A DNA stretch of 64,000 nucleotides from a virus: the IMG/VR virus record IMGVR_UViG_3300027906_000003, positions 1 through 64,000 of that record. The stretch is one strand, 5' to 3'. The notes beneath the pieces are model-generated. The model saw only the letters and a program-made list of their open reading frames with translations. It was not told the DNA's origin and searched no databases. Both the position numbers and the translations under genes were made by a program. Shown here one piece after another: positions 43,388 to 60,882 of this stretch; the first letter of the stretch is position 1, and every line of letters begins with the position of its first letter.

Positions 43388-43600
43388 ATGGAAGAGTATG
43401 CACAAGTTGAAGGACATTCTAATCTTTTAAGAGATGAAGAATCTTCTGCAATTGTAAATACAGACATTGAACAATGGAAACTTGCAAAACAAAGAAAATT
43501 GCGTTTTCAAAACCAAGCGAAAGAGATAAATAGTTTAAAGAGTGAAGTTGGTGAAATTAAAAACCTACTTAACGATATATTAGGAAAGTTAAATGGCTAA
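43388..43600 (+). CDS. small coiled-coil protein following VrlC
   Basis: VEGHSNLLRD..S.AIVN...EI..LK.EV.EIK.LL. Confidence 0.75.
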   Translation: MEEYAQVEGHSNLLRDEESSAIVNTDIEQWKLAKQRKLRFQNQAKEINSLKSEVGEIKNLLNDILGKLNG

Positions 43601-45071
43601 AACCGTAGATAATTACAGCACAATAAACGAATTCAGAGAGAGATATAATGAACTTGCCACAGATGTAGGTGAGGTTTCAGGATTAAGACCTGCGTTAGGA
43701 GAAAATCTTGTTGATGCCGTTAACGCAGTAGAAGATAAAGCATTCTATTTTGGAAAGTATAGATATGTTGCAACTGCAGGACAACAAACATTCACAGGTG
43801 CAGATGCAAATGGAAACACTCTTAAATATAAAGGAAATAGAGTTCAAGTATTTAAGAATGGTTCGTTATTAGAAGAACAAACTGATTGGCAGGTTGGTGG
43901 ACTTGCAGGTGCTTTCTATTATGACATACAATTGATATCGGCGGCAAGTGCTAATGATTTAATACAAATCTATGCTTACACAGGTTCTTTTGAAGGAACT
44001 GCTACATCAACTGCAATACTTTCATTCTTTACAGAAACATTACAGAACACAATCTATAACACAAATTCAAATGGTGTTATACTTCAAGGAGATAATTCAT
44101 CTCCTACAACAACCTTACAAGGTGGATATACTTTACAACTTGCAGGTAAAACTTATGCAGAAGATGACCTAACACTTGCAACAGGTAAACTATTAACTGC
44201 ACCTACTATGACTGATGGCACTTTATCAATCGATAATGGTAACATAACAGCTGCGGTCAATGGAACATTCTCAGCACAAGTTCAAGCAGAACACTTAAAA
44301 TCAACAGATGATTTAGAAGTAGCCGAAGATGCAACAATTGGTGGTGACTTAGGAGTCACTGGAACTGCAACAGTAGGAACTTTGTCATCAGGTGGTATAA
44401 CAGGAACAACTGCAAGTTTTACAGGAAATGTAGACTTAGGAAGTGATGCAAATGATACAGTATCAATTCTTGGTGTTGTAGATACAAATATAATGCCTAA
44501 TTCAGATAATACTAGAACATTAGGTTCTTCTACAAAGAGATTTCAGAGTTTACATGCAACAACTATTACTGCAACAACATTAAATGGTGAACTAGTAGGT
44601 AATGTAAAAGGTGATATCCTTAAAGATGACGGAACCAAAATTTTAGAAAACTCAACAGGTGCGTTGACTGGTACCGTTTCTAGTGTTTCAAATCATGCAG
44701 CGTCAGGATTATCAGATATTAATTATACATCATCACCAGCTGCTGGTCAAGTCTTAGCATGGGATGCCTCAAACAATTATTGGGAACCTGTTAACCCTAC
44801 AAATACAACAGACTCAGTATCAGAGGGTTCAAACAATTATTACTTTACAGATGATAGGGTCAATGCAATCATTAATGCTAATGCAGGTTTAGCCAAATCA
44901 TATGCTACCAACACAGGAAATTCTTTGGATGGTGACATAAATATTAGTGTTAACACCGCAGAAGGAGTCAAAATTGATGGTGATAATGTGGTGATGGACA
45001 AAACAATAGTAAGTTCAGCTCCTTCTGGAGTTGGGTCGACATCATCAGGTCACTTATGGTTTGTAGTATAA
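43593..45071 (+). CDS. tail fibre / whisker-like structural protein
   Basis: T..EFR..YN N-terminus, ATAGQQTF, beta-repeats, EGSNNYYFT; C-terminal SSAPS...GHLWFVV. Confidence 0.7.
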   Translation: MAKTVDNYSTINEFRERYNELATDVGEVSGLRPALGENLVDAVNAVEDKAFYFGKYRYVATAGQQTFTGADANGNTLKYKGNRVQVFKNGSLLEEQTDWQVGGLAGAFYYDIQLISAASANDLIQIYAYTGSFEGTATSTAILSFFTETLQNTIYNTNSNGVILQGDNSSPTTTLQGGYTLQLAGKTYAEDDLTLATGKLLTAPTMTDGTLSIDNGNITAAVNGTFSAQVQAEHLKSTDDLEVAEDATIGGDLGVTGTATVGTLSSGGITGTTASFTGNVDLGSDANDTVSILGVVDTNIMPNSDNTRTLGSSTKRFQSLHATTITATTLNGELVGNVKGDILKDDGTKILENSTGALTGTVSSVSNHAASGLSDINYTSSPAAGQVLAWDASNNYWEPVNPTNTTDSVSEGSNNYYFTDDRVNAIINANAGLAKSYATNTGNSLDGDINISVNTAEGVKIDGDNVVMDKTIVSSAPSGVGSTSSGHLWFVV

Positions 45072-45074: not shown

Positions 45075-46469
45075 ATGTCAGAGAAAATTTATGTAAATAC
45101 TGGTTCGACCTTTCAACAACCATTTAATGATAGGTCACCTAAGAATGCTCAGCAACCTTATATAGCTAATGCTCAGACTCCCTATATAGCTAATTCACAA
45201 ACACCCTTTACATATTCAAATAGACAACCTGCAAAGTATCAGAATCCAACTGATGCTCAGCAACCTTATATAGCTAATGCACAACAGTCGTATCCATATA
45301 TTGCTAATGCAAGACAACCTTACATAGCTAACGCACAACAACCTTATCCATATCAGGCAAATAGTCAGAATCCTTATATTGCGAATGCAAGGCAACCTGC
45401 GAAGTATCAACATCCGACATCTTCTCAGACTCCTTACATAGCTAATGCACAGACACCGTATCCTGCTAATGCAAGACAACCTAGTGATTATCAAACACCT
45501 TATATTGCAAATTATCAAACAGCGTATCCTGCAAATGCGAGACAACCTGTAGATGCTCAACAACCTAGTAATAGTCAAACACCATATCCTGCAAATGCTA
45601 GGCAACCTGCAAAATATAGAAACCCATTTACATATAATGCGAGGACTCCAGCATCTTCACAAACTCCTGTAACCTATGATGTGTGGGGTGGGGGAAATGC
45701 TCAATCAACATCACAATTAGAAACCACAACTGATGTGTCAGCACCTATGGCACCCTTTTCACAAACGCCTACTTTTAATTACCAGACTGTAGGTCAACCA
45801 ACATCAATTCATTGGGGTCCAGGTTCAACACATATAAAAAATAGTCCAAATTCATCATATGCTCCAACAACTGCACCTATGATTTGGAGTACCCAGCAAT
45901 ATAACACTTATAATTACAGTTTCGGTTCTTGTTGGGCTCAGTTCTTTATTGGTTATGAATCTAGTTCAGGCAAAGTTTACTACGGTTATGGTGCGGGTAA
46001 TTCTCAATTCGGAGGCACAAGTGTTGGCACCTCTGGTAATAGAGTATATTTACCTTTAACTGAATTAAGTAATAATAATGTTATTGATAGTTCTTGGTCA
46101 ATATCAGTCAAATATACAGTTCAATCACAAAGTATAGTTCAAGGTGGTACATCTTCTCAACATCCAGCTAGTCCGAGTTATGGTACAGGTTTAGCTGCTG
46201 GAACATATGTAAACATATGGGATGGTTCTTCTGTTCAAAGTAGTGGCATTGAAACATTCATGTGGGAGGCGGTATCATCATCTAACCCAGGAAATGGAGA
46301 TGCAAGGGTTTCTGCAAGTGGTGTAGTATTTACAGTTAAGGCACATAAGACTGGTCAAACATCATACTATACACATTATATTGTAGCACAACATGGAGCT
46401 GGTACCAGCTCACCTTTTGGTGAAATATATTTGAGGTCACTCTATGGTAATAACCATGCACCAGTATAA
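45075..46469 (+). CDS. QPY-repeat filament protein A with C-terminal globular domain
   Basis: 25 units of x(Q/R)xP.. (6/8/10 aa), mostly PYIAN, followed by about 270 aa of Ser/Gly/aromatic-rich sequence. Confidence 0.8.
   Translation: MSEKIYVNTGSTFQQPFNDRSPKNAQQPYIANAQTPYIANSQTPFTYSNRQPAKYQNPTDAQQPYIANAQQSYPYIANARQPYIANAQQPYPYQANSQNPYIANARQPAKYQHPTSSQTPYIANAQTPYPANARQPSDYQTPYIANYQTAYPANARQPVDAQQPSNSQTPYPANARQPAKYRNPFTYNARTPASSQTPVTYDVWGGGNAQSTSQLETTTDVSAPMAPFSQTPTFNYQTVGQPTSIHWGPGSTHIKNSPNSSYAPTTAPMIWSTQQYNTYNYSFGSCWAQFFIGYESSSGKVYYGYGAGNSQFGGTSVGTSGNRVYLPLTELSNNNVIDSSWSISVKYTVQSQSIVQGGTSSQHPASPSYGTGLAAGTYVNIWDGSSVQSSGIETFMWEAVSSSNPGNGDARVSASGVVFTVKAHKTGQTSYYTHYIVAQHGAGTSSPFGEIYLRSLYGNNHAPV
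45111..45656 (+). repeat. coding repeat array A (182 aa)
   Basis: Unit lengths 6,6,8,8,8,6,6,8,10,8,10,8,6,6,8,8,6,8,8,6,6,8,6,8,6. Confidence 0.85.
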
Positions 46470-46483
46470 GGAGATGAGAAGAT

Positions 46484-47200
46484 ATGCCTACAGTTAGTCA
46501 ACCAGTCATAATTCAGCAACCTTATATTGCAAGTGGTCAATCGCCGGTCGATTATAGAGTTCCGTTTACATATCAGGCAAGACAACCTGGAACATATAGA
46601 CACCCCTTTACATATCAAGTTCCGTTTACATATCAGGCAAGACAACCTGGAACATATGATGCAAGGCAACCTGCAAAGTATCAACACCCATTTATATATC
46701 AGGCACGACAGCCTTCTACATATCAGGCAAGACAACCTGCTATATACAGACATCCGGCAGATTATCAAACACCATTTACATATGCTCGTAGACAACCGGC
46801 AACATATGCAAGACAAGGTCAAACTCCGTTTACATATCAAGCAAGAACACCTTTCACATATGATAGACAAGGTCAAACACCATTTACATATCAGGCAAGA
46901 AGTCCGTTTACATACAGAAATCCAACAGACTATCAGACACCTTATATTGCAGATGCAAGACAACCTGGAACATATTCTAATAGACAACCATCCACTTATC
47001 AGAATAGACAACCATTCACATATCAACTTTCGGTTCCAAGCACAAGACCAATAGGTCCTTTGGCAAAAGCAAAACAAGTTTGGGTAAATGATAACGGAAC
47101 TTTAAAAAAGGCAAGTAGTGTATATGTAAATGATGGTGGAACGGCTAAAAAGATACATCAAACACAACCTACAGCACAATTAACAGAACCTAATACCTAG
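46484..47200 (+). CDS. QPY-repeat filament protein B (mirror partner of A)
   Basis: PFTY/PGTY units; C-terminal VWVNDNG and VYVNDGG motifs; AGGAG RBS. Confidence 0.8.
   Translation: MPTVSQPVIIQQPYIASGQSPVDYRVPFTYQARQPGTYRHPFTYQVPFTYQARQPGTYDARQPAKYQHPFIYQARQPSTYQARQPAIYRHPADYQTPFTYARRQPATYARQGQTPFTYQARTPFTYDRQGQTPFTYQARSPFTYRNPTDYQTPYIADARQPGTYSNRQPSTYQNRQPFTYQLSVPSTRPIGPLAKAKQVWVNDNGTLKKASSVYVNDGGTAKKIHQTQPTAQLTEPNT
46493..47038 (+). repeat. coding repeat array B (182 aa)
   Basis: Unit lengths 6,8,6,8,6,6,8,8,6,8,8,6,6,8,10,8,10,8,6,6,8,8,8,6,6, the reverse of A. Confidence 0.85.
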
Positions 47201-47213
47201 AGTTCTTTTTTCG

Positions 47214-47221
47214 TATAAATA
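47214..47221 (+). promoter_or_regulatory. late promoter
   Basis: TATAAATA, 5 nt before the ATG. Confidence 0.75.
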
Positions 47222-47226
47222 GTTAT

Positions 47227-47562
47227 ATGGCTATTATCGCAAACTTATATATTGACCAAGGAACAGACTTCACAATTACAGTTGATGTCACAGACGCTGC
47301 TGGAGATGTTCTTAATTTGACTAACTATTCTGCGCTTGCACAAGTAAGAAAAACATATAGTTCTTCTAGTGCTTCAGTAGCATTTACTACTTCGATATCA
47401 GCAGCTCAAGGTCAAGTCACATTAAGTCTAAATGATACACAAACAAAAGCTTTAGAAGCAGGTCGATATGTTTACGATTTAAATATCACAAGTGCTGGTG
47501 GGATAACTACTAGAGTTGTCGAAGGACAAGCAATAGTGACACCAGGAGTAAGTCGGAGTTAA
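47227..47562 (+). CDS. Ig-like fibre/baseplate adaptor protein
   Basis: NLYIDQGTDF...AQVRK...GRYVYD...RVVEG...VTPGV. Confidence 0.75.
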   Translation: MAIIANLYIDQGTDFTITVDVTDAAGDVLNLTNYSALAQVRKTYSSSSASVAFTTSISAAQGQVTLSLNDTQTKALEAGRYVYDLNITSAGGITTRVVEGQAIVTPGVSRS

Positions 47563-47564
47563 TT

Positions 47565-47807
47565 ATGTCGAACATTAAAGGAACAGTTTCAAGAGTTGTA
47601 GGTATCTCAGGTAGAGTTGGAGGCACAGGAAACATTCGTGCTAAACAAGTCCAAGTTGGTTCAGGTGGAGGTGCAGACTTATCAGCAAAATCTATAAATG
47701 AACTTGCAGATGTTAATGCAACTGAAACAGATGATGGTCTTCTTTCATATGACCAAGCATCAGATAAATGGACAACCACTACTACGATAGACGGCGGAAC
47801 ATTTTAA
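47565..47807 (+). CDS. short fibre connector protein
   Basis: LADV...DGLLSYD...KW; C-terminal IDGGTF. Confidence 0.65.
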   Translation: MSNIKGTVSRVVGISGRVGGTGNIRAKQVQVGSGGGADLSAKSINELADVNATETDDGLLSYDQASDKWTTTTTIDGGTF

Positions 47808-47823
47808 AAAGTTTTAATATATT

Positions 47824-48687
47824 ATGGATGAATGGTCACCTTTGCGTGAAATCATTGTAGGCACACTTCAAGGTTTCGAAGAACATAATCACTATTCATC
47901 ATATCATTCCTCAAATAAATTCATTAAATCATTATATGATGAAGCAGAAGAGGGTCTACAAACATTTCAAAAACTATTAGAGAAAGAGGGTGTAATTGTT
48001 CATCGTCCTCGTGGTTTTTGTTATAATGTAAGAGATTGTGCTGTAGTATTAGGTGATACTATTGTTGAGGGTTCTATGAGATATGAAGAAGAGTATCTTT
48101 GGTTGGAATCTTTAAGACCAATATTCTTAGAAAGTGATTTAAATTATTTGATAGGTCCTAAACCCACATGGAAAAATGACGAACCCATATTTGATGGTGC
48201 AAATCTTTGTAAACTAGGAGATAGTGTTCTAATTGCAATTAATGAAACTGCAAATGATAAAGGAAAAATGTGGTTAGAGAAAACATTTCCAAATATAAAC
48301 TTCAATTCAATAAATCTAAAAGAAGATGTATCTCATATAGATACAACTATAGTTCCTATATCTTCTAATACTGTTTTATTAAACTCAAATAGATTAGACG
48401 AAGATACACTTCCATCTGTATTGAATGATTGGAATAAAATATGGGTTAAAGAAGAAGATTTAGTAGATGAAGCTAAAATGTTTGGATTTAAATATGGTGC
48501 AAGTAAGTGGATAGGTATGAATACTCTTTCTCTTAATGAGAATACACTATTCATTAGTGAAGGACAAGTAAAACTTATAGACATATTAGAGAGTAAGAAC
48601 TTTAATTGTATACCTGTTCCTTTAAGATATACCAGAGAACTTTGTGGTGGTTTACATTGTTGCACTTTAGACCTGGTTAGAGAATAG
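47824..48687 (+). CDS. amidinotransferase (pentein superfamily, glycine amidinotransferase-like)
   Basis: DEWSPLREIIVG, RD, FDGAN, HIDTT, GGLHCCTLD. Confidence 0.88.
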   Translation: MDEWSPLREIIVGTLQGFEEHNHYSSYHSSNKFIKSLYDEAEEGLQTFQKLLEKEGVIVHRPRGFCYNVRDCAVVLGDTIVEGSMRYEEEYLWLESLRPIFLESDLNYLIGPKPTWKNDEPIFDGANLCKLGDSVLIAINETANDKGKMWLEKTFPNINFNSINLKEDVSHIDTTIVPISSNTVLLNSNRLDEDTLPSVLNDWNKIWVKEEDLVDEAKMFGFKYGASKWIGMNTLSLNENTLFISEGQVKLIDILESKNFNCIPVPLRYTRELCGGLHCCTLDLVRE

Positions 48688-48693
48688 GATTTG

Positions 48694-48701
48694 TATAAAT
48701 A
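48694..48701 (+). promoter_or_regulatory. late promoter
   Basis: TATAAATA, followed by a long structured leader. Confidence 0.75.
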
Positions 48702-48835
48702 CTAATACAATCAATGTGCCATTCAGTGAGGCACGAACCTCATAGTGAGAGGATAGCATATATGATTTCAATCTAGGGATAGTGAACTAGAATTTTGCAA
48801 AATTTTATTAAATATATTTTCTTTAGGAGAGAAAA

Positions 48836-50476
48836 ATGGCAACAGTAATTCAAATCAAACGAAGCACAGGAGTATCCGCACCAGCAGTCTCAGACTTAGC
48901 TGAAGGCGAATTAGCTTATGTGCAGGATAGGTCGAATTCAGGTGCTGGTGCTAAACTATACATCGAATCAGTAGATTCTGATAACTCTACTCCATTAATT
49001 CAAGCAATTGGTGGTAAGTATTATACAGATATCTTAGCTGGTTCAGCTGCGACTCCTGCCAACTTTAAAGTTGGTAATGGTTCAACAGCAGGTGCAAGTT
49101 TACAACTATTAGAAGACAGTGACAACGGAACACATTTCGTTGGATTAAAAGCTGCCGATACAATAGCTTCATCAGTTACCTTTACACTTCCAGCTGCCGA
49201 CGGTTCTGCTAACCAAGTGTTAGGAACAGACGGCTCAGGAACACTTTCGTTCTTATCAACAACATCTACGCTCGCAGGTGCAAGTGATACTAATATCACA
49301 ACACCAGCTGATGCGTCAATGCTTTTATATGACACAGGAACATCGAAATGGATAGACAATGTTATGTCCGGCGATGCTACTATGACAGATGGTGGTGTTT
49401 TAACAATCGCAAACGATGCCGTTGAACAGGCTATGATTGCAGACGACGCTGTTGGTGCAGACCAACTTGCGGCTTCAGCAGTTGTATTTGGTTCATTAGC
49501 AGGTGCGATGGTACAAACATCAGGTGAATCATTTAGTGATGACGATGTCTCATTAATGACTTCAGCTGCAATCTTGGACAAAATCCAAGCAACTGCAACA
49601 CTAGAAGACTTAGATGTCGCTGGTGATTCAGGAACAGGTGCAGTAGATTTAGACTCACAATCATTAACAATCGCTGGTACAGCGAACGAGATTGAAACAT
49701 CTGCTAGTGGACAAACTATAACAGTTGGTCTTCCTAACAATGTGACAGTCGCAAACAATTTAACCGTTTCAGGAAACTTAATATCAGACGATATTACAAC
49801 TGCAACTTTAACAACATCTGGTAACTTAACAGTCACAGGAAACTTGGCCGTTAACGGAACTACAACTACAGTAAACTCAACAACAGTAAATATTGCTGAC
49901 CCTGTATTTGAAATTGGTGACGATTCATCAGATGACAACCTAGACAGAGGTATTAAATTTAAATACAACTCTGGTGGTGCAAAGATTGGTTTCTTCGGAA
50001 TGGATGATACTGACGGTTCTTTTGTTGCTCTATCAAGTGCAACAGATAGTTCATCAGTATTCTCTGGAACTGCAATGGCAGGTAAATTCGGCAACTTAAC
50101 AGCTGCTGGTTTAGCAATGTCAGGAAGTATTTCTTCTTATGCAGGTTCAGCTCCAACAGATGGACAGTTATTAATAGGTGATACAGCTTCAGGAATAATG
50201 GACGCTGCTACTCTTACTGCTGGTGATGGTATTGACATCACTAACGGTGCAGGTGCAATTACGATTGCTACCGAAGTGGGTACTGCTTCTAACTTAGGTT
50301 CTGTAATTATCGCAGTTGGGGAAGGCATGGATGTGGCTTACTCAGGTGGTACTGCTACTCTTTCAGGAGAGGATGCAACTACAACCAATAAAGGTATTGC
50401 AAGTTTTGCTACAGCAAACTTTACAGTATCAAGTGGTGCGGTTTCTATCACAGGTATCGATGGCGGTACATTTTAA
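48836..50476 (+). CDS. tail fibre protein
   Basis: MATVIQIKRS...LAEGELAY; LPAADG..QVL.TDGSG.LSF; GNL.V.GTTTTVNST; C-terminal IDGGTF. Confidence 0.8.
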   Translation: MATVIQIKRSTGVSAPAVSDLAEGELAYVQDRSNSGAGAKLYIESVDSDNSTPLIQAIGGKYYTDILAGSAATPANFKVGNGSTAGASLQLLEDSDNGTHFVGLKAADTIASSVTFTLPAADGSANQVLGTDGSGTLSFLSTTSTLAGASDTNITTPADASMLLYDTGTSKWIDNVMSGDATMTDGGVLTIANDAVEQAMIADDAVGADQLAASAVVFGSLAGAMVQTSGESFSDDDVSLMTSAAILDKIQATATLEDLDVAGDSGTGAVDLDSQSLTIAGTANEIETSASGQTITVGLPNNVTVANNLTVSGNLISDDITTATLTTSGNLTVTGNLAVNGTTTTVNSTTVNIADPVFEIGDDSSDDNLDRGIKFKYNSGGAKIGFFGMDDTDGSFVALSSATDSSSVFSGTAMAGKFGNLTAAGLAMSGSISSYAGSAPTDGQLLIGDTASGIMDAATLTAGDGIDITNGAGAITIATEVGTASNLGSVIIAVGEGMDVAYSGGTATLSGEDATTTNKGIASFATANFTVSSGAVSITGIDGGTF

Positions 50477-50503
50477 TAACGCTTAATCTAACGGAGAATT
50501 CAG

Positions 50504-51331
50504 ATGGCAACAGTAATACAATTCAAAAGAAGTTCTACTCAGAATAGTGTTCCTGCTACTAGTGATTTAGCACTAGGTGAATTAGCAGTCAACACTTACC
50601 ACGGTAGATTCTATACTGAAAAGAACGATGGTTCTGCTTCAGTTGTAGAAGTTGGGTCTAACCCAGCATCTCTTACTGTTAACGACGCATTCTCATTCCC
50701 AACTGCTGACGGTTCTTCGAATCAGGTCTTAAAGACTAATGGTTCAGGAACTTTAGCGTGGTCAGACCAACCAAGTTCAGGCATGGTAGTATTTACATAT
50801 ACAATGTCTGGCACTACAACATCAATCACAGGTAATGATGATAGTTCAAACTCATTATCATATACAAGTGGTTCAGAATCAGTATACATCAACGGTGTTA
50901 AATTAGTTGGAGGTGGTGCAGACTATACTGCAACTAGCTCAACAGTTATAACACTTGCTGAGAATGCTGTATCTGGTGATGTTGTTCAGGTTGTTGCAAT
51001 AACAGCGGCTAGTAATCTAGTCCAAGGTTTCTTCACAACAGGAAGCTTTACAGCTACTACTGCAGACCAGGTCTTATCATCAAACGCAGTTGCGAACAAG
51101 GCAGTTAAGTATGTTATTAACGCCACACACGCGTCAGCAGGAACTCACGCAGCTGAGGTCCTACTGATTAATAATGGTACAAATTCATATTTTGTGCAAT
51201 ACGGTGATGTTTATTCATCATCTTCATTGTTTACTTTGAGTTCAGATATTGATTCAGGAAACATGAGATTACTCGTGACTCCTGCCAATACTAACACAAC
51301 GATAGACACTTTCCAAATTAGACATAGTTAA
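50504..51331 (+). CDS. tail fibre protein
   Basis: MATVIQFKRS...LALGELAVN; VYINGVKL; C-terminal KY...E..L..QYG...RLLVTP domain. Confidence 0.78.
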   Translation: MATVIQFKRSSTQNSVPATSDLALGELAVNTYHGRFYTEKNDGSASVVEVGSNPASLTVNDAFSFPTADGSSNQVLKTNGSGTLAWSDQPSSGMVVFTYTMSGTTTSITGNDDSSNSLSYTSGSESVYINGVKLVGGGADYTATSSTVITLAENAVSGDVVQVVAITAASNLVQGFFTTGSFTATTADQVLSSNAVANKAVKYVINATHASAGTHAAEVLLINNGTNSYFVQYGDVYSSSSLFTLSSDIDSGNMRLLVTPANTNTTIDTFQIRHS

Positions 51332-51341
51332 GGAGTAGAAA

Positions 51342-51752
51342 ATGGCTAAAACAAACGCATTTAAAATCGCTGAGTTAATAAGAGTTTTCTCTTATGATTC
51401 ATCTGCTGATGTTATCACTACTTCTAAGGAACTAGATACTAAACATAGAACTTCAAGTTCTTTGACAACAACTGCAACTACAGAGGTAAATTTAGATACC
51501 TTTGCTCATGCTTCTTATAGAGCAGCGAGATACATTGTGGCAATGTCAAAGGGTTCTGATTTCCATTCTACAGAGATAGTATTAGTTCATGACGGAAGTG
51601 CGGTGACAATGACTCAGTATGGCACACTCAAATCGGCCACTTTGGCATCATTTGATTCAGATATTTCTGGTTCAGATGCACGATTGAGGGTAACTCCAGC
51701 GTCAAGCAGTTCTACGGTTATTAATATTCATAGAGTATTAGTTTCAGCGTAA
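51342..51752 (+). CDS. fibre-associated structural protein
   Basis: DTF...YRAARY...HSTEIVLVHDG...TQYG...RLRVTP. Confidence 0.72.
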   Translation: MAKTNAFKIAELIRVFSYDSSADVITTSKELDTKHRTSSSLTTTATTEVNLDTFAHASYRAARYIVAMSKGSDFHSTEIVLVHDGSAVTMTQYGTLKSATLASFDSDISGSDARLRVTPASSSSTVINIHRVLVSA

Positions 51753-51771
51753 GACTTCTTTATATTATTCG

Positions 51772-51798
51772 AAAGGGGAACTTAGTTCCCCTTTTTTT
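51772..51798 (+). terminator. intrinsic terminator
   Basis: AAAGGGGAAC-TTA-GTTCCCCTTT followed by a T run. Confidence 0.88.
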
Positions 51799-51811
51799 GG
51801 TCTACAAATCT

Positions 51812-51819
51812 TATAAATA
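51812..51819 (+). promoter_or_regulatory. late promoter
   Basis: TATAAATA just after the terminator. Confidence 0.75.
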
Positions 51820-51843
51820 GTATAACACAAGAGATTCTTTTAT

Positions 51844-52680
51844 ATGGCAACAAAATCTAAATTTTATGCAGACTTAGGATTAGAATCAGCAAGTAATTTG
51901 CAAGTTGATGGTAATGCAACCATTACAGGTAATTTAACTGTAAACGGAACAACCGTGACAGTTAATAGTGCCACAACTTCTGTTGCTGATTCAATGTTAG
52001 AACTTGCAAACGGCAATACATCGTCAGATACACTAGACATTGGGTTCTACGGAAACTATAATGACGGTATTGGTAGTGAAAGTGGTGTTTCAGAATATAC
52101 AGGACTCTTTAGAGATGCAAGTGATTCAACATGGAAACTATTTGATGGTTTAGAAGTAGAACCAACTTCAACTGTTAATGTTTCAGGAACAAATTATGCA
52201 CTTGCAGACATGCAGGTAGGTGACTTGACAGCAACAACTCTTACTGCAACAAACAGTATTACAGGTGCTTCGATAGTCTTTCCAACCAGTGACGGAACTA
52301 GTGGACAAGCTATTGTGACTAATGGTTCAGGAACTTTATCATTTGAGACCGTCTCAGGTGGTTTAGATGGTGGAACATTGACAACAACTTCAACTTCTGA
52401 AACTACAATGGATAGTTTTGTAATATCAACATATAGAAGTGGAAAATACCAAATCTCAATATCAGATTCAACTAGTGGAGATTATCAACAAACAGAAATC
52501 TCAGTAGTTCATGACGGAACGAGTGCCTACTTTACCCAATACGGAACGATAACAACAGATACAAGTGAATTGGCAACATTTGGAGTTGATATAAATATCA
52601 ATACCTTACGAATCAGGATAACTCCTGCTTCATCTAATTCAACTGTATTTAAATTTAAGAAAATACTTGTAGATATTTAA
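51844..52680 (+). CDS. tail fibre protein
   Basis: GNLTVNGTTVTVNS, GLFRDASD, DSF...YRSGKY...VHDG...TQYG domain. Confidence 0.75.
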   Translation: MATKSKFYADLGLESASNLQVDGNATITGNLTVNGTTVTVNSATTSVADSMLELANGNTSSDTLDIGFYGNYNDGIGSESGVSEYTGLFRDASDSTWKLFDGLEVEPTSTVNVSGTNYALADMQVGDLTATTLTATNSITGASIVFPTSDGTSGQAIVTNGSGTLSFETVSGGLDGGTLTTTSTSETTMDSFVISTYRSGKYQISISDSTSGDYQQTEISVVHDGTSAYFTQYGTITTDTSELATFGVDININTLRIRITPASSNSTVFKFKKILVDI

Positions 52681-52710
52681 ATTTAGTCCGTGCCGAGAGG
52701 ACACAACTAT

Positions 52711-52718
52711 TATAAATA
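52711..52718 (+). promoter_or_regulatory. late promoter
   Basis: TATAAATA. Confidence 0.72.
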
Positions 52719-52754
52719 TCTGTATACTAACACATTCTAAACTAGGACAGATAT

Positions 52755-53015
52755 ATGGCAACAACAAATACATTTGTAGTAGAATACGGATTGACAGTTG
52801 GAACAACCGAAGTTATAAATTCATCAGGAAAGATACAAGCGGCAGCTATTTCAACCTTAGATTCTGATGACCTTTCGGAAGGTTCTACAAATCAATATTT
52901 TACTAACGCGAGAGCAAGAGGGTCTATATCCTTAGCTTCTGGAGAGACAAATCTCAGTTATAATTCTACATCTGGAGAACTTAGTCTACCAACAGTTAAC
53001 GGAGGTACCATCTAA
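52755..53015 (+). CDS. short fibre connector protein
   Basis: FVVEYGL, EGSTNQYFTNARAR, C-terminal NGGTI. Confidence 0.68.
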   Translation: MATTNTFVVEYGLTVGTTEVINSSGKIQAAAISTLDSDDLSEGSTNQYFTNARARGSISLASGETNLSYNSTSGELSLPTVNGGTI

Positions 53016-55084
53016 TGGCGGGTGAAAAGAACTTTAATATTAAAAATGGACTATCAGTTCAAGGCGTAGAAGTAATAAACTCGTCTGGTGACTTAGTTGC
53101 CGGCGGAGTTGGAACAGCAGTTCAAGAGGCCATTGCAGATAAAATCGGTGGAATACTCAGTGCAACAGGTGGTGCAACTGCAACATACAATGATGGTGCA
53201 GACACTATCGTTATTGATGTTCCAATTACAGATGAAGATAACATGGCATCAAACAGTGCTACTGCTATTCCTTCACAACAATCAGTCAAAGCATATGTAG
53301 ACTCTCAAATCTTAACAAAAGACAATACAGATGAGATAACAGAGGGTTCAACTAATTTATATTTCACAAACGCAAGAGCAGATGCCAGAATTGCAAACGC
53401 AATCAAAGATGAAGATAACATGGCATCAGATAGTGCAACTCATGTTCCTTCACAACAATCTGTTAAGGCTTTTGTAGCCACACAACTTGCAACTAAAGAC
53501 GCATTATCAGAACTTTCAGGTGATTCAGACGATATCACAGAGGGTACAACAAACTTATTCCATACATCTGAAAGAGTTGCAGATGTTGTTGGAGGAATGG
53601 TGACTTCAAATACCGAATCTGGTATAACAGTCACATATGAGGATGGTGATAACACTTTAGACTTTGCAATAGGAACACTAAACCAAAACACAACAGGTTC
53701 AGCAGCTACTCTAACAACTCCAAGAGCAATTTCAGGTACCAACTTTGATGGTTCTGCAGACATTACTTTAACGACTGCCGGAATAACAGAAAACACAAAT
53801 CTCTACTATACAAACGAAAGAGTTGATGATAGAGTCAACGCATTATTGACTGCTGGTACTAACATAACAACATCATACGATGATGCAAATGGTACCTTAA
53901 CAATTAACTCTTCAGGTAAAACAGAAGAAGAAATTGAAGACATTGTAAACGGATTAGTTGTTGGTGGAACAGGAATATCATCAACATATGATGACGCTGC
54001 TGGAACATTAACACTTGCAACTTCTATTACACAATATGCAGATTCAGATGCTAGAGGTGCTATCTCAGTCACAGATTCAGGTGGAGATGGTAGTTTAGCA
54101 TATAATAACTCAACAGGTGTAATAACTTATACAGGACCAAGTGCATCAGAAGTAAGAGCTCATCTAAGTGCTGGAACTGGTGTATCATATTCAGGTGGTG
54201 CAATCAGTATTGGTCAGGCAGTTTCAACTTCTTCAGATGTCACATTTGGGGATATAGCTGCAACAGATATAACACTATCTGGAAACTTAACAGTTAATGG
54301 TACCACAACAACAGCTGCTTCTACTAACACAGTAATCACAGATAGATTGATTGAGTTAGGAAACGGAACAACAGGAACACCAGCAAATGATATGGGTCTT
54401 GTCTTCGAAAGAGGAAGTTCAGACAATGTATTTGTAGGTTGGGACGAAAGTGCAGACGCTGTTACCGTAGGAACAGGTTCATTTACAGGTGCTAGCACAG
54501 GTGATTTAACACATACAGTAGCTAACTTTACTGCTGGTGTTGGAACATTTGCCTCATTAGATATTTCAGGAAACGCAGACATTGACGGAACAATGGAAGC
54601 AGATGCGTATACAGTTGACGGAACTGCATTAAACGAATACATTGCCGATACAGTTGGTGCAATGGTATCGTCAAATACTGAAAGTGGCATCACAGTTGCT
54701 TATCAAGACGGAGACAATACATTAGACTTTACAATCGGAACACTTAACCAAAACACTACAGGTTCAGCGGCAACATTAACAACAGCCAGAGCAATAGCAT
54801 TAGGTGGAGATTTATCAGGTTCTGCAAACTTTGATGGTTCTGCAGATATAACAATTACTGCTACAGTAGCAGATGATTCACACAATCATACAATTGCAAA
54901 TGTAGATGGACTACAAACTGCATTAGATTCAAAATATGATTCAGGTGATAATATTGCAGCGGGAACAATAACAACAACGAATGCAAGTAATTCGGGTGGA
55001 TATGTAAGAAATGTATATCAGTCAACATCTAATCCAGGCAGTAGTGATGGTGCAGTTGGTGACTTATGGATATTATACAGTTAA
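53015..55084 (+). CDS. long tail fibre protein with internal duplications
   Basis: FNIKNGL, EGSTNLYFT repeats, two DEDNMAS..PSQQSVKA and two SNTESGITV modules; C-terminal GDLWILYS. Confidence 0.8.
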   Translation: MAGEKNFNIKNGLSVQGVEVINSSGDLVAGGVGTAVQEAIADKIGGILSATGGATATYNDGADTIVIDVPITDEDNMASNSATAIPSQQSVKAYVDSQILTKDNTDEITEGSTNLYFTNARADARIANAIKDEDNMASDSATHVPSQQSVKAFVATQLATKDALSELSGDSDDITEGTTNLFHTSERVADVVGGMVTSNTESGITVTYEDGDNTLDFAIGTLNQNTTGSAATLTTPRAISGTNFDGSADITLTTAGITENTNLYYTNERVDDRVNALLTAGTNITTSYDDANGTLTINSSGKTEEEIEDIVNGLVVGGTGISSTYDDAAGTLTLATSITQYADSDARGAISVTDSGGDGSLAYNNSTGVITYTGPSASEVRAHLSAGTGVSYSGGAISIGQAVSTSSDVTFGDIAATDITLSGNLTVNGTTTTAASTNTVITDRLIELGNGTTGTPANDMGLVFERGSSDNVFVGWDESADAVTVGTGSFTGASTGDLTHTVANFTAGVGTFASLDISGNADIDGTMEADAYTVDGTALNEYIADTVGAMVSSNTESGITVAYQDGDNTLDFTIGTLNQNTTGSAATLTTARAIALGGDLSGSANFDGSADITITATVADDSHNHTIANVDGLQTALDSKYDSGDNIAAGTITTTNASNSGGYVRNVYQSTSNPGSSDGAVGDLWILYS

Positions 55085-55104
55085 TAACTGTAAGGTGAAA
55101 ATAA

Positions 55105-55977
55105 ATGGTAACAGGTAATCAAAAGGTTAAAACCCCAGCTGGTTGGAATTCAACTAGAGGGGCTTGGGTTAAGACTGCATCAGACACATGGACAGATGTT
55201 GACCAGATTTATGTAAAAACTCCAACAGGTTGGAATAATGCGTCAGGTCAGGCAATTACTCAGAACCCTTACCCATATATTGCGAATAATCAAACCCCTT
55301 ATATTGCTAATGCTCAACAGCCTTATCCTTATATTGCGAATAACCAGACTCCATATATTGCAAATGGTCAACAACCATATCCGTATATAGCAAACAGTCA
55401 GACTCCTTATATAGCAAACGGTCAACAACCTTATCCATATCAGGCAAATAGTCAGACTCCTTATATTGCTAACGCACAACAACCGTATCCATATATTGCG
55501 AATAGTCAATCACCATATATTGCTAATGCAAGACAACCTGCAAAATATCAGAATCCTGTAAATGGACAACAACCCTATATTGCAAATGGTCAAAGAAATG
55601 AGTCATACAGAAATCCTGTAAACTATCAGACACCTTATATTGCAAATGCTAGACAACCTGCACATTATAGGAATCCTGTAAGTTATCGTGTGCCTTATAT
55701 TGCAAATGGTCAACAACCATTTACCTATAATGCAAGGTATCCGGCAACATATCCGGCAAATGCTCAGCAACCATTCACCTACAATGCAAGGTATCCTGCA
55801 ACATATCCGGCAAATGCAAGACAACCATTTACATATAATGCAAGATATCCTGCAAATGCAACATATCCTGCAAACGGACAACAACCGTCTACATATCCGT
55901 TCTTGTATAATGCACCTTATCCATTCTTCCAACCATTTGGTGGCGGCGGTGGTTCACCTAACATGAACTTGAAATAA
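55105..55977 (+). CDS. QPY-repeat filament protein C
   Basis: N-terminal head with three VKT...W motifs, then 26+ x(Q/R)xP units. Confidence 0.8.
   Translation: MVTGNQKVKTPAGWNSTRGAWVKTASDTWTDVDQIYVKTPTGWNNASGQAITQNPYPYIANNQTPYIANAQQPYPYIANNQTPYIANGQQPYPYIANSQTPYIANGQQPYPYQANSQTPYIANAQQPYPYIANSQSPYIANARQPAKYQNPVNGQQPYIANGQRNESYRNPVNYQTPYIANARQPAHYRNPVSYRVPYIANGQQPFTYNARYPATYPANAQQPFTYNARYPATYPANARQPFTYNARYPANATYPANGQQPSTYPFLYNAPYPFFQPFGGGGGSPNMNLK
55258..55875 (+). repeat. coding repeat array C (206 aa)
   Basis: Unit lengths (10,8)x5,(6,6,8)x3,8,10,8,10,8,6,6. Confidence 0.88.
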
Positions 55978-56011
55978 TGGAGTATATAATGAATAAAACG
56001 GAGAACACACA

Positions 56012-56749
56012 ATGGCTATAGGATTTTACTGGACAAGTGCTCAAGGTAACACTAGGTCACCGTTTACTTATCAAGTCCCATTTACATATCGTGTGCCTTA
56101 CATTGCAAATGGTAGGTCACCATTTACTTATCAAGCATCATATCGTGTGCCTTATATTGCGAATGGTAGAAGTCCTTTCACATATCAAGCATCATATCGT
56201 GTGCCTTACATTGCAAATGGTAGGTCACCGTTTACATATAATGCAAGGTATCCGGCAGGTTATAGAAATCCGGTAAGTTATCGAGTTCCGTTTACATATT
56301 CAAATAGACAACCTGCATTATATCAGAATCCTGTAATTTATCAAGTTCCGTTTACTTACAACAATAGGTCTCCGTTTACATACAGAAACCCTGTAGATTA
56401 TAGAATACCGTTTACATATCAGTCAAGACAACCAGGCACATATCAGAGAACAGGACAAACTCCATTCACTTATCAGAATAGACAACCTGGAACATATGAA
56501 ACACAAGGTCAAACACCATTTACCTATCAAAACAGGCAACCAGGAACATATGATAGGCAAGGACAGACTCCATTCACTTATCAGAATAGACAACCTGGAA
56601 CATATGCAAGACAAGGTCAGACTCCATTCACTTATCAGAATAGACAACCTGGAACATATGCTACACAAGGTAGAACACCAGTGTCTCGTTGGGATGGAGT
56701 TTTATCACAAACTTGGCCAGCAGCTCCGTTTGATGCTACAAACTCATAA
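56012..56749 (+). CDS. QPY-repeat filament protein D (mirror partner of C)
   Basis: GGAG RBS; YRVPYIAN, GQTPFTYQ and NRQPGTY units. Confidence 0.8.
   Translation: MAIGFYWTSAQGNTRSPFTYQVPFTYRVPYIANGRSPFTYQASYRVPYIANGRSPFTYQASYRVPYIANGRSPFTYNARYPAGYRNPVSYRVPFTYSNRQPALYQNPVIYQVPFTYNNRSPFTYRNPVDYRIPFTYQSRQPGTYQRTGQTPFTYQNRQPGTYETQGQTPFTYQNRQPGTYDRQGQTPFTYQNRQPGTYARQGQTPFTYQNRQPGTYATQGRTPVSRWDGVLSQTWPAAPFDATNS
56051..56668 (+). repeat. coding repeat array D (206 aa)
   Basis: Unit lengths 6,6,8,10,8,10,8,(8,6,6)x3,(8,10)x5, the reverse of C. Confidence 0.88.
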
Positions 56750-56808: not shown

Positions 56809-58461
56809 ATGGCAGCTGATTCTAAATTTATTGACATCAAAACAGTTGAAGATGTTGATAAGATAAAACAAATAGATTTCTCAGATGTAGAGAACGCATT
56901 CTCTATAAGAAACAAAGAAGATTCTGAACACTATCATTTAGGAAGTCTAAATGTGAATCGTGTTATGAAAGATATCAATCCTTGTTATCAAGTTCTTAAA
57001 AAAGTATTCGAAGAGAAAAAAATACCACCTCTTAAATTATTTACATATGGTGATGTAATAAATGATAGAAGAGGAAATACAATGTTGACTATGCACGGTT
57101 TAAAACACCATTCTCTAGTATATAACGCATTCCTACCTTATGGTTATACTTGTGCTCCAACTCCAGAAATGTTTCCAACAGGAACAAATACATCTGTAAT
57201 TAGAACAGAAGAAGACCCAAATGGAGAAAGGTCTATAAATTATTATGCAGTAGAAAAAGATGAAGAAGATAGTCAATCTCAACCACAAAAAACACTTTGG
57301 GATAGTTCTTACTATCACGCTGCGAAAGCACACTGGTTAACTCAAAGTATAATTGAAGATGGTTTATGGGCACCAATACAAGGAATTATTTTAAAAGATA
57401 CTTCATGGATTGATGAAAACAATCCAGATGAAAAGTATAAATTCTATGTTCATCCAGGTTCTGTTCGTTCAGGTGTTATTGAAGAAATGCAAGACCCTAG
57501 TATGATGTGTCATTTCTTTGACCCACATAACAAGGTTCCTGATGTTGAACCAGCAACAGTAGATGAGTTTTTGGATTATTGGAAAGACTTACTTGAAAAA
57601 AGAAATATAGAACAAGACAATCTATCTTTTATTATAACAGGTGGAGTTATAGAGGTAAGCAGTGAGTTTGCAAATGTGTCTGATTTTAGGCCTAAAATAT
57701 ATGAGTTTAATAAGAAAGTTCATAAACTTGCAAAAGGTAAACCTCTAAACATATACATTGGTTATGACTCAACACATAATCAATTAGAAGAATTAACCAA
57801 GTTCTCCATAGAAGACTCAATTAAACAAAGTTTTTCTGCAAATACAAAAACAAATCGATTCATTCCTGAGATAAAAATGCTTGACTATTCTAAGATTCCA
57901 GTGTATAATAGGGAGTATGCAAATCAATCTACTGCGTTTACATACAGTAGATTTTTGATACCTTACTTAGAGAATTATGAAGGATTCAGTATGTTTCTTG
58001 ATGATGATATTCTTTTTGAAGAGAATTTATTACCAATGTTCTACTATCTAAATCCTGATGATGCGGTTGCGTGTATTCAATACCCACAATATAAACACGA
58101 TTCTGTTAAGTTTAATGGTGAAATAAACATAGATTATCCATGTAAGTTGTGGTCTTCATTAATGATATTTAATAATGGACATGAAGACTGTAAGAAACTA
58201 ACACCAGAAGTTGTTAATACATGGACAGGTGCTCAGTTGCATCAGTTCGAATGGACAGATAAATTGAGTAAGATACCTGAACACTATATTTTTACTGAAG
58301 GATATGATAATCCAGAAACCAAATGGGGTTGTTCTGGTTATCATTATACAAGAGGTGGTCCTTGGATAGATAACATGGACACATCTAATATTAAAAGACT
58401 ATCACACTATGAGAAAATAAAGACTCGTAGAGACAACCTAAATAATTTGAAGAGAGGATAA
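56809..58461 (+). CDS. unknown N-terminal domain fused to a GT-A glycosyltransferase
   Basis: C-terminal half IYIGYDS, STAFTYSRFLIPYL, FLDDD (DxD), WSSLMIFN, HYTRGGPW. Confidence 0.78.
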   Translation: MAADSKFIDIKTVEDVDKIKQIDFSDVENAFSIRNKEDSEHYHLGSLNVNRVMKDINPCYQVLKKVFEEKKIPPLKLFTYGDVINDRRGNTMLTMHGLKHHSLVYNAFLPYGYTCAPTPEMFPTGTNTSVIRTEEDPNGERSINYYAVEKDEEDSQSQPQKTLWDSSYYHAAKAHWLTQSIIEDGLWAPIQGIILKDTSWIDENNPDEKYKFYVHPGSVRSGVIEEMQDPSMMCHFFDPHNKVPDVEPATVDEFLDYWKDLLEKRNIEQDNLSFIITGGVIEVSSEFANVSDFRPKIYEFNKKVHKLAKGKPLNIYIGYDSTHNQLEELTKFSIEDSIKQSFSANTKTNRFIPEIKMLDYSKIPVYNREYANQSTAFTYSRFLIPYLENYEGFSMFLDDDILFEENLLPMFYYLNPDDAVACIQYPQYKHDSVKFNGEINIDYPCKLWSSLMIFNNGHEDCKKLTPEVVNTWTGAQLHQFEWTDKLSKIPEHYIFTEGYDNPETKWGCSGYHYTRGGPWIDNMDTSNIKRLSHYEKIKTRRDNLNNLKRG

Positions 58462-58464
58462 ATT

Positions 58465-59046
58465 ATGAATGATATAAAAAACGCTTTAGTTTTTTGTGAG
58501 AACAGAAATCTTTGGATAAGAAAACCAAACGGACTTGAATACGAATTTCAGAATGTTGATAAACCTGCATTAGGTTTTGAATTTGATGTTGTAATATATG
58601 ATGAGATGGAAAGTAAAATTCTTAAATGGGACCCAAATAAAAATTTTGACGAACAAGAAATAGTTCCTTTAAATGAAAGTGAGAAAGAACTTTGTGAACA
58701 ATATATTGCAAATTCAGAAGCACCAGAAGGAATAAATCTACACAATCAATATGTAGAAAGACTTGGTGATTATTGCAGACAACAACAAGAAGAAGTTCGA
58801 ATGACTTATGGTTTCCGTGATATGGAAATGGTATTGGTTGCTGGTAGAGAGGGTTCAAATCATCCTATGAGAGGAAATGCCAGAAGAGTATTAGAGTATG
58901 TTGATAATACACATCAAATATTTGCTTCGGTAACTGATGAAATCTTTGCAACTAAAGAAGAACTACTTAAAGATTATGATGTTTATAGAAGACAGATACC
59001 TCAATCGTCTATGGCTACAGGCCATGCCGAATTAGGTAATGCCTAA
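58465..59046 (+). CDS. hypothetical protein, possible tail fibre assembly chaperone
   Basis: Position after the fibre genes; helical C-terminus loosely resembling tail-fibre-assembly proteins. Confidence 0.45.
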   Translation: MNDIKNALVFCENRNLWIRKPNGLEYEFQNVDKPALGFEFDVVIYDEMESKILKWDPNKNFDEQEIVPLNESEKELCEQYIANSEAPEGINLHNQYVERLGDYCRQQQEEVRMTYGFRDMEMVLVAGREGSNHPMRGNARRVLEYVDNTHQIFASVTDEIFATKEELLKDYDVYRRQIPQSSMATGHAELGNA

Positions 59047-59048
59047 AG

Positions 59049-59792
59049 ATGCAAGTCGTTCACATTGATAAACCCTTTAAGATACAGGACATGCCTTTAA
59101 AAGATGTCTATGTATTAGATAATTGGTTATCAACTGAACTACATCAACACTTCGATAAACTAATTTCTAATAATTCTTGGTGGTCTAAAACAAATCAAGT
59201 AGGCAGTAATAGTCCTACAGGTCTTCCACACCATTCTTTTTGGGGTGCGTCTTTCTTTAGAGACAACTATGAAATAGAACATGACATGGAACCTCTACAT
59301 ACATATTTTGTTAAATCTATTATAGAAAGACTTGAAGTTGAATTTGGATTTAAATATACTCGTTTTCAATATGCAGGCCTAAACTCACAAACACAAGGTT
59401 GTCCAGGAACAATACATACAGACTGTTCAAATGATGACGCATGGAATATATCCTTTCTATATTACCCAAATAGATTTTGGAATCCAAAATGGGGTGGGAC
59501 ATTAAGATTGCTTGATGAACCACATCAAGGTTTAGATGGAAGACAAGAACATATTGAGAAACATCAGATAGCCGAAGTAGAGTTTGTTCCAAATCGACTA
59601 GTTATATTTGACGGAAGAATACCTCATGGTGCAGATGCACCAAATGAAAGTGCAAGATATATGGATAGAAAATCTTTAGTAATAAGAGGAGATGAGGTAG
59701 AATTAATAAAAAACACAGAGGTGTTGTATAAATCTTATAGAAGGCCAATGACAGAATGGGCCGCTGGAACACACCTACAACCTTACTTTTAA
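59049..59792 (+). CDS. 2OG-Fe(II) oxygenase, prolyl-hydroxylase-like
   Basis: HTD...LYYPN..W...WGG...PNRLVIFDGRIPH...R. Confidence 0.85.
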   Translation: MQVVHIDKPFKIQDMPLKDVYVLDNWLSTELHQHFDKLISNNSWWSKTNQVGSNSPTGLPHHSFWGASFFRDNYEIEHDMEPLHTYFVKSIIERLEVEFGFKYTRFQYAGLNSQTQGCPGTIHTDCSNDDAWNISFLYYPNRFWNPKWGGTLRLLDEPHQGLDGRQEHIEKHQIAEVEFVPNRLVIFDGRIPHGADAPNESARYMDRKSLVIRGDEVELIKNTEVLYKSYRRPMTEWAAGTHLQPYF

Positions 59793-59793
59793 A

Positions 59794-60879: not shown

Positions 60880-60882
60880 ATT

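Follow-up and report, generated by a model that had tools for sequence, protein, structure and literature searches.

Introduction

The tip of the long tail fiber of phage T4 is a needle formed by gp37, which a single gene encodes: three chains, each doubled back along its own length, give six strands, and iron is bound at HxH motifs. Here we describe two pairs of adjacent genes, A/B and C/D, that may encode another kind of antiparallel fiber. They lie in the first 64,000 nucleotides (nt) of an IMG/VR virus record of 123,820 bases (IMGVR_UViG_3300027906_000003); we call this 64,000-nt stretch the window. As with the gp37 needle, the proteins would belong to a host-recognition fiber of a T4-like phage and would form very long, antiparallel, extended strands whose register is set by a repetitive motif. 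Unlike the needle, each pair is encoded by two genes and lacks sequence similarity to gp37 (C and D have no match beyond chance in the PDB), and its register would come from the complementarity of aromatic and small side chains, together with a barcode of units of 6, 8, or 10 residues. The HxH motif, which is the hallmark of gp37, does not occur in A, B, C, or D (which have 8, 4, 1, and 0 histidines, respectively). We saw no fused, single-chain form among the 158 related loci that are described below, though longer proteins were not searched for.

Other protein systems share some of these features. In heterospecific coiled coils, two chains also match along their full length, and a steric fit of large and small side chains decides both the partner and the orientation. 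But coiled coils are built from alpha-helical heptads, while the repeat lengths of the A-D family are mixed aperiodically. Helices and coiled-coil heptads can be excluded for A-D because prolines recur every 6-10 residues and because Tyr, Phe, Ile, and Pro follow a strict two-residue periodicity. Adhesin stalks of the antigen I/II type consist of an Ala-rich helix and a Pro-rich polyproline-II helix, and they resemble A-D in having period-matched antiparallel segments, a long and thin stalk, and a tip domain. Those segments are in one polypeptide and are helical, whereas the chains that we describe come from two genes, are probably beta strands, and follow a code of swapped units. We also looked for glycine at every third residue, as in collagen: (G-x-x)n runs reach n = 2 at most in A and C and n = 1 in B and D, and the periodicity of the chains excludes a collagen-like fiber. 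RNA stems offer an analogy: they too are antiparallel and gapless, each slot draws on two complementary letters, and orthologous slots change jointly on both strands. The differences are that A-D would rely on the steric packing of side chains, that there are several types of rungs, and that a third of the rungs on the even face have no ring.

The sequences of the two partners obey rules that are conserved in homologous pairs. The order of unit lengths is mirrored like a barcode; when the partners are aligned antiparallel, each rung (two facing residues) carries at most one aromatic ring, with very few exceptions; residues are sorted by parity; facing positions covary; and different pairs from the same set of contigs are orthogonal. 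From these rules, it seems probable that the partners in A/B, and likewise those in C/D, would form a long two-chain antiparallel beta-ribbon that is the shaft of a host-recognition fiber.

Two pairs of mirrored repeat proteins

According to the list of open reading frames (ORFs), all four genes are on the plus strand: A at 45075-46469 (464 amino acids, or aa) is followed by B at 46484-47200 (238 aa), and C at 55105-55977 (290 aa) is followed by D at 56012-56749 (245 aa). We refer to A and C as chain 1 of their pairs and to B and D as chain 2. The repeats are units of 6, 8, 10, or 12 residues that start with proline; only even lengths occur. No other gene in the 123,820-base record contains such repeats.

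We set the register from prolines alone: for every offset, we counted how many prolines coincide with prolines of the reversed partner, regardless of the type of unit. For A/B, the antiparallel alignment has 23 coincidences at a single offset, while the runner-up has 13 and the best parallel alignment has 15. For C/D, 26 of the 29 prolines in D coincide at a single offset (runner-up, 16; best parallel, 18). The crossed combinations (A-D, B-C, A-C, and B-D) reach 11-17 coincidences at best. The alignments are gapless across about 182 residues in A/B and about 206 in C/D. The paired shafts are residues 16-197 of A (45120-45665) with residues 7-188 of B (46502-47047), and residues 55-260 of C (55267-55884) with residues 17-222 of D (56060-56677).

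In this register, A/B has 12 eight-residue slots. (Nine are stand-alone units and three are within merged 16- or 18-mers, where one chain lacks the proline.) C/D has 11, of which 10 are stand-alone and one is merged. A sequence-only reading of this DNA had claimed that the 8-mers follow a rule like base pairing, with unlike units always facing each other. With the register fixed by prolines only, all 23 slots do place PY(I/P/Q)A opposite Px(T/I)Y. The rule also survives where the chains trade unit types, which happens twice in A/B and three times in C/D, each time just as the reading described. In A, PFTYSNRQ (residues 44-51; 45204-45227) faces PYIADARQ in B (residues 153-160; 46940-46963), and PFTYNART (residues 184-191; 45624-45647) faces PYIASGQS (residues 13-20; 46520-46543); thus, the two PFTY units of A sit opposite the only two PYIA units of B. 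In C, PFTYNARY occurs at residues 205, 223, and 241, with PATYPANAxQ 10-mers in between (55717-55848). This block faces residues 29-72 of D (56096-56227), which comprise three PYIANGRS units (at residues 65, 47, and 29) and two PFTYQASYRV 10-mers. As had also been noticed, the 10-mers match by type: PYPY(I/Q)AN faces P(G/A/F)TYxxxGxT, and PATYPANAxQ faces PFTYQASYRV.

Given the number of units of each type in each chain, the chance of the pairing in the window is 1/C(12,2) = 1/66 for A/B and 1/C(11,3) = 1/165 for C/D. If only stand-alone slots are considered, the chances are 1/36 and 1/120. The three swaps in C/D may count as fewer than three independent events because all of them are in a tandem (8+10)x3 block.

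Homologous pairs keep the rule

We collected homologues with two pattern scans of IMG/VR, using patterns from A and from D. The scans returned 176 and 174 matching stretches; we took the best 80 of 173 and the best 80 of 174 confirmed matches and kept 80 A-query loci and 78 D-query loci. Exactly two adjacent repeat ORFs are present in 143 of the 158 loci, and the remaining 15, with a single repeat ORF, are truncated where the contig ends. These loci include 73 distinct homologous pairs, with chain-2 lengths of 205-559 aa, and in each of the 73 pairs, one antiparallel offset dominates. Cognate partners match a mean of 83% of the prolines in the proline-poorer chain, versus 53% in non-cognate pairs. 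Within the paired spans (72-532 aa), an average of 92.5% of chain-2 prolines match, and in one locus (L055), 70 of 73 prolines coincide across 543 aa. If we include the two pairs in the window, the 75 pairs have 60 different architectures of unit lengths, each mirrored in the partner. (In some homologues, we considered the second-best offsets as signs of insertions or deletions, but these offsets are periodic echoes, with dK of +/-8, 18, 20, or 26, so we rejected this idea.)

Frequent pairing of like with like in homologues had been named beforehand as the observation that would speak against the rule, and it was not seen. In 980 of 996 eight-residue slots, exactly one of the two units has an aromatic residue at position 4. 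The pair at this position is A:Y in 600 slots and Y:A in 242; Y:Y and A:A occur once each. Most of the other slots likewise have a single aromatic residue at position 4 (Y:R, R:Y, Y:G, F:A, G:Y, G:F, and others). By comparison, if chain-2 units are shuffled within each pair, then the count averages 585 (standard deviation 13.9) and never exceeds 630 in 2000 runs, and if the partner is slid by one or two slots, then the count is 600-684. Thirteen of the 16 exceptions involve the last or next-to-last unit, which is degenerate; of the three internal exceptions, one comes from a truncated chain whose offset is ambiguous.

Both orientations are used in 70 of the 73 pairs, and many pairs change orientation several times along the shaft. 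Compensated swaps are also visible at orthologous positions. At residues 128, 150, and 170 of A, the window and locus L087 have YPA opposite F(T/I)Y, while loci L088 and L089 have xTY opposite Y(I/Q)A. Since both chains flip together at orthologous slots, it is fair to speak of compensatory change as in an RNA stem, as the sequence-only reading did.

One aromatic ring per rung

For every shift near the proline register K, we looked for aromatic residues that face each other, and we take i+j = K-2 as the register of residues. K-2 is the only even shift without aromatic-aromatic rungs in the window (0 of 57 aromatic-containing pairs in A/B and 0 of 77 in C/D). Pooled over the homologues, there are 5 such rungs at K-2 versus 347-2078 at other even shifts. 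At K-2, the facing positions are 2:6, 3:5, 4:4, and 6:2 in 8-mers; 2:4, 3:3, and 4:2 in 6-mers; and 2:8, 4:6, 5:5, 6:4, and 8:2 in 10-mers. Of the even shifts, only K-2 sets position 4 against position 4 with essentially no aromatic-aromatic rungs, which bears out, at the level of residues, the proposal that tyrosine is set against alanine.

Among the 9299 rungs on the even face, 6233 have one aromatic residue, 3061 have none, and 5 have two, compared to about 1050 with two that would be expected from the marginal frequency of aromatic residues. In other words, 67% of even rungs bear a ring. No rung with two aromatic residues was found in the tabulated classes of 6-mers (745 pairs) or 10-mers (426 pairs). 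The residue opposite the ring is usually Ala (3385), Gly (826), Asn (615), Val (566), Arg (530), or Ser (124), and the rung types include Y:A, F:A, F:G, Y:G, Y:R, Y:V, and Y:N. Rungs on the odd face are stereotyped (P:Q, P:R, N:T, and I:Q). So the rule of YIA against FTY holds for 8-mers but is too narrow. The general form is that a rung has at most one aromatic residue, which is valid for 6-, 8-, and 10-mers and with Ala, Gly, Asn, Val, Arg, or Ser as the partner.

Residues are sorted between odd and even positions with few errors: the counts (odd/even) are 7/4675 for Tyr, 4/1700 for Phe, 5358/3 for Pro, and 1663/68 for Ile. Such near-errorless sorting is characteristic of extended, two-faced strands, which is the conformation that the chains would adopt.

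The sequence-only reading had proposed that covariation between the chains be sought across homologues, and it is present. Regardless of unit type, the peaks lie on the antidiagonals i+j = L (direct, which agrees with K-2) and i+j = L+2 (diagonal), where z scores are from shuffles of unique unit pairs. In 8-mers, the strongest combinations of positions are 6 x 2 (z = 21.3), 8 x 2 (z = 13.7), 2 x 6 (z = 7.3), and 3 x 5 (z = 4.9). In 10-mers, they are 10 x 2 (z = 20.1), 8 x 2 (z = 20.0), and 5 x 5 (z = 7.0), and in 6-mers, 2 x 4 (z = 22.9) and 3 x 3 (z = 13.6). The residues that covary are matched in size (Ala or Gly with Phe, Ser with Gly, and Arg with Ser or Thr).

The window also has Lys:Asp pairs at position 3 of 6-mers, which is the dyad position. 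There are four in A/B, one of which is charge-swapped between the chains (residues 52-57, 108-113, 136-141, and 178-183 of A with residues 147-152, 91-96, 63-68, and 21-26 of B), and one in C/D (residues 145-150 of C with 127-132 of D). Locally, these pairs resemble a second complementary letter of the code, one that is rare in the other homologues. As a marker of the register, salt bridges were rejected: pooled over the homologues, there are only 8 opposite-charge pairs at K-2.

Partner specificity

In 10 sets of contigs that contain two pairs each, cognate partners have 0-1 aromatic clashes, while crossed partners have 0-12 clashes and fewer matched prolines. (Two of these 10 sets have numbers that are identical to those of another set.) We also compared the DNA of the partners. 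Within both A/B and C/D, similarity is on the plus strand only, and the best high-scoring segments on the minus strand have E values of 0.12 and 0.078. This absence of minus-strand similarity excludes a DNA-level cause for the mirrored units; furthermore, the units of a protein would not come out in reverse order if its DNA were inverted.

A proposed two-chain shaft

That the two chains bind each other, in a beta geometry and as part of a fiber, is what we infer from these rules. Chain 1 would be anchored at the proximal end by its N-terminus and, in A, would carry a variable distal tip at its C-terminus. Chain 2, which is nearly all shaft, would run in the opposite direction, with residue i of chain 1 opposite residue (K-2)-i of chain 2, without gaps. 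One face of the ribbon would display Pro, Ile, and Arg along with many of the Thr, Asn, and Gln residues, and the other, aromatic face would display Tyr, Phe, Ala, Gly, and Val. Rungs on this aromatic face would be limited to at most one bulky ring, with a small or flexible residue (Ala, Gly, Asn, Val, Arg, or Ser) across from it. In an 8-mer, position 4 would lie on a local two-fold axis, where two tyrosines would collide and two alanines would leave a gap. Because position 4 is on this local dyad, an 8-mer would be unable to face its own kind, which could account for the rule of YIA against FTY. The prolines would occupy outward-facing sites that are not hydrogen-bonded, on both edges of the ribbon; of the two parities, the one that we observe is alone in permitting this for the prolines of both chains together. 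A barcode made of the aperiodic sequence of unit lengths (6, 8, and 10 residues) and of the orientations of the rungs would fix a single register and guard against slipped registers or wrong partners. It would also stop the chains of one fiber from recognizing those of the other fiber in the same virion.

We lean, somewhat cautiously, towards seeing in this a natural digital code for pairing proteins (a "protein duplex"). Two antiparallel chains would zip together along stretches that range from 160 to more than 500 residues, with an alphabet of ring against small residue in either orientation and with the 6/8/10 spacing as a barcode. If so, then the register, the choice of partner, and the orthogonality of several fibers in one cell are linearly encoded, and they change through compensated swaps in the manner of nucleic-acid helices. 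To our knowledge, this would be the first natural assembly that combines a slot-by-slot complementary alphabet for partner and register, an extent of hundreds of residues, and upkeep by compensated double changes. It would also be a new architecture for phage fibers, an antiparallel heteromer rather than a parallel homotrimer, in abundant uncultured myoviruses of the ocean. How long repetitive fibers avoid assembling out of register is an old question, which would become directly testable. The code would be readable, predictable, and rewritable from sequence alone, and for protein design, the homologues would offer at least 60 natural architectures towards orthogonal, beta-rich rods of programmable length. 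The sequence-only reading had likewise suggested programmable assembly, for which the code might be suitable.

Ends of the chains

Chain 1 has an N-terminal anchor, the shaft, and usually a variable globular domain of about 150-260 aa at the C-terminus. The anchor has three VKTPxGW-like motifs in C-type proteins (residues 1-54 of C; 55105-55266) and one IYVNTGS motif in A-type proteins (within residues 1-15 of A; 45075-45119). Chain 2 begins with about 6-8 residues before the shaft and ends with a short tail, which has either PVxRWDGxLxQxWP or two VYVNxxG motifs. The tail of D is PVSRWDGxLSQTWP, and the C-terminus of B (47048-47200) has two (V/Y)VNDxG motifs. The proximal end of each pair thus has three W/Y-V-(K/N)-x-x-x-G motifs, either three in C or one in A and two in B. 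Given these layouts, in the antiparallel reading, the C-terminus of chain 2 would meet the anchor of chain 1, and its N-terminus would meet the tip.

The globular domain is present in A (about residues 271-464) and absent from C, which ends 8 residues after GGGGG. AlphaFold2 (with a 9-row alignment) gave A a mean predicted local distance difference test score (pLDDT) of 42. The repeat region scored below 35, and residues 271-464 alone were predicted to fold, as a beta-sandwich (pLDDT 55-76). In a wide search of known structures with VIA-align, the best match to this predicted tip was the adhesin CfaE (Z = 5.2; root-mean-square deviation of 4.5 over 132 aligned residues), which is below the level that the program treats as meaningful. 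When the complex of C and D was predicted (with 12-row alignments for each), ipSAE was 0.00 in both ESMFold2 runs, and the fold of the partner was uncertain, a result that speaks neither for nor against binding.

In two C-type relatives, P0009 and P0029, the terminal GGGGG is followed by a cysteine and an intein-like (Hint/Vint) domain of about 150 aa (Vint, 27.9 and 30.4 bits, with a cut-off of 27). Since the duplex model places the end after GGGGG beside the N-terminus of chain 2, autoprocessing or covalent closure of the end of the ribbon is conceivable, but this is speculation.

Alternative explanations

The chains might pair as we describe while the code reflects the packing of a core within a bundle, such as three heterodimers in a six-stranded antiparallel needle. 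In that case, the restriction to one ring per rung would reflect how much volume a narrow core can hold. Burial would make it easier to understand why the ban on aromatic-aromatic rungs is so strict (5 of 9299) and why the aromatic face is continuous (67% of even rungs have a ring). Also, most phage fibers are trimers, and six antiparallel strands have a precedent in the gp37 needle. Nevertheless, we think that such a bundle is unlikely: three anchor motifs per pair fit one heterodimer on a three-fold partner better than they fit three heterodimers, prolines every 6-10 residues on both outer edges would weaken the hydrogen bonds between ribbons, and A-D have neither HxH nor another metal motif. 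A non-beta extended form, such as antiparallel polyproline-II or collagen-like helices, would suit chains that are rich in Pro, Gln, and Tyr, and a member of a family that includes prolyl hydroxylases (2OG-FeII_Oxy_3) is encoded nearby. But unit lengths of 6, 8, and 10 are even rather than multiples of three, Tyr, Phe, and Pro are sorted by parity with an error of about 0.1-0.2%, and no Gly-X-Y run exceeds 2, so this form is highly improbable.

Even if the chains did not bind each other, a shared scaffold, such as a trimeric fiber or a host polymer, could impose the mirrored spacing on both if they ran along it in opposite directions. Several ordinary fiber-like proteins are encoded beside the pairs (43593-45071, 48836-50476, and 53015-55084) and might provide such a scaffold. 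A common scaffold would yield matched spacing, but not opposite size classes at position 4 or covariation along the antidiagonals of i+j. Moreover, the 75 pairs have 60 architectures, with a roughly sevenfold range of shaft lengths (72-532 aa), and we saw no third gene that varies along with them, which makes this very unlikely. Least credible of all, in our view, is that the pattern is merely a side effect of composition and tandem duplication, with A and C rich in YIA, B and D rich in FTY, and swaps that coincide by chance or by the choice of alignment. Within the window, only 5 of the 23 slots are informative, and three of these are in one tandem block, so the window by itself would leave some room for this explanation. 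But 70 of the 73 homologous pairs use both orientations, often with several changes along the shaft, and shuffling within pairs gave at most 630 of 996 slots, versus 980 observed. The register was derived from prolines only, and neither minus-strand similarity nor inversion of the DNA can be invoked. Near-duplicates among the homologues are countered by the 60 distinct architectures.

Some points weigh against our preferred reading of a two-chain ribbon. Contact between the chains, the beta conformation, and the presence of the proteins in the virion are deduced from the sequences. The Lys:Asp rungs in the window (four in A/B and one in C/D) fail to generalize. Because we took the best matches to the patterns of A and D, the sample leans towards close relatives, and the z scores for covariation are uncorrected for shared descent and tandem duplication. 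Also, some of the strongest covarying pairs are on i+j = L+2 (positions 10 and 2 of 10-mers, and positions 8 and 2 of 8-mers), so the direct register could be K instead of K-2. In isolated hairpins, cross-strand aromatic pairs are tolerated or even favorable, and a continuous exposed stripe of Tyr and Phe would be unusual. A strict ban on aromatic pairs suggests a tighter setting than a free two-stranded ribbon, such as ribbons that are packed face to face. The strictness of the ban favors some burial of the aromatic face.

Searches of databases and the literature

The repeats of A-D have no match in Pfam or PHROGs. Only the C-terminal motif of B matches a family (phrog_13729, whose function is not known). 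In sequence searches of the PDB, C had no matches and D had one chance match (E = 0.24). We searched the INPHARED phages with tblastn and identified no cultured homologue, although the low-complexity filter may hide some: A had no match, and C and D had only weak ones. We rejected the weak match in Pseudomonas phage Flu_PA14_4 (PQ287279.1), which is in another frame of an unrelated SAASNTG-repeat protein. (That protein, at L167:2005-3327, is a hypothetical protein of 440 aa with about 30 tandem nonamers of the form SAASNTG(Y/D/N)(Q/R/Y).) There was also a weak tblastn match to Vibrio phage F23s1, of which the annotation table of the locus was inspected. A search for homologous proteins with D, limited to its own length class and so excluding longer and shorter ones, had 171 matches, all of them metagenomic and either unnamed or "hypothetical." Literature searches with motif strings (PYIAN and PYIANA), or with terms for fibers, repeats, or antiparallel heterodimers, found no description of these proteins among the papers listed, which included one on the design of heterospecific peptides and a review of protein design.

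Genomic context

The source of this record is an uncultured marine T4-like myovirus. To the left of the pairs, at 36676-43383 (plus strand), tblastn identified a giant structural protein that is 32-36% identical to VrlC of Methylophilales phage Melnitz, Pelagibacter phage Mosig, and cyanomyophages. To the right, at 62741-63595, is a T4 neck protein (T4_neck-protein in Pfam, 129.7 bits). PMC7029224 describes a hypervariable host recognition cluster in pelagimyophages and cyanomyophages that extends from VrlC to the neck gene and includes fiber genes and GT8 glycosyltransferases. Since the VrlC-like and neck proteins flank A-D, these genes are within the host recognition cluster as that paper defines it, that is, in the same genomic place. 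In its passages on the cluster, PMC7029224 mentions neither mirrored repeat proteins nor a pairing rule; its supplements may list such genes.

Immediately after B is a small protein (47227-47562) that matches phrog_3304, "L-shaped tail fiber protein assembly" (4.4e-26), and that has a weak match to the LtfC-like beta-sandwich in Pfam (17.2 bits, with a cut-off of 27). A gene of the phrog_3304 type is found in 24 of the 80 A-query loci and in 0 of the 78 D-query loci.

D is followed by a conserved cassette on the plus strand (56809-61599), which we mention for context only. It begins with a GT8-like protein at 56809-58461 (Glyco_transf_8, 22.3 bits, which is below Pfam's cut-off of 24.3). The cassette also encodes two 2-oxoglutarate (2OG)-Fe(II) oxygenases, at 59049-59792 and 60883-61599 (2OG-FeII_Oxy_3, 33 bits, and Oxy_5, 72.9 bits), and two ORFs without a match in Pfam (58465-59046 and 59794-60879). 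These proteins could modify the shafts, which are rich in Pro, Tyr, and Thr, or the cassette could be mere conservation of gene order. The GT8-like gene, both of the ORFs without Pfam matches, and the first oxygenase are present in all 78 of the D-query loci, and the second oxygenase is present in 55 of the 78. In all 69 of the D-type loci with at least 2.5 kb of downstream sequence, the GT8-like gene is directly downstream of chain 2.

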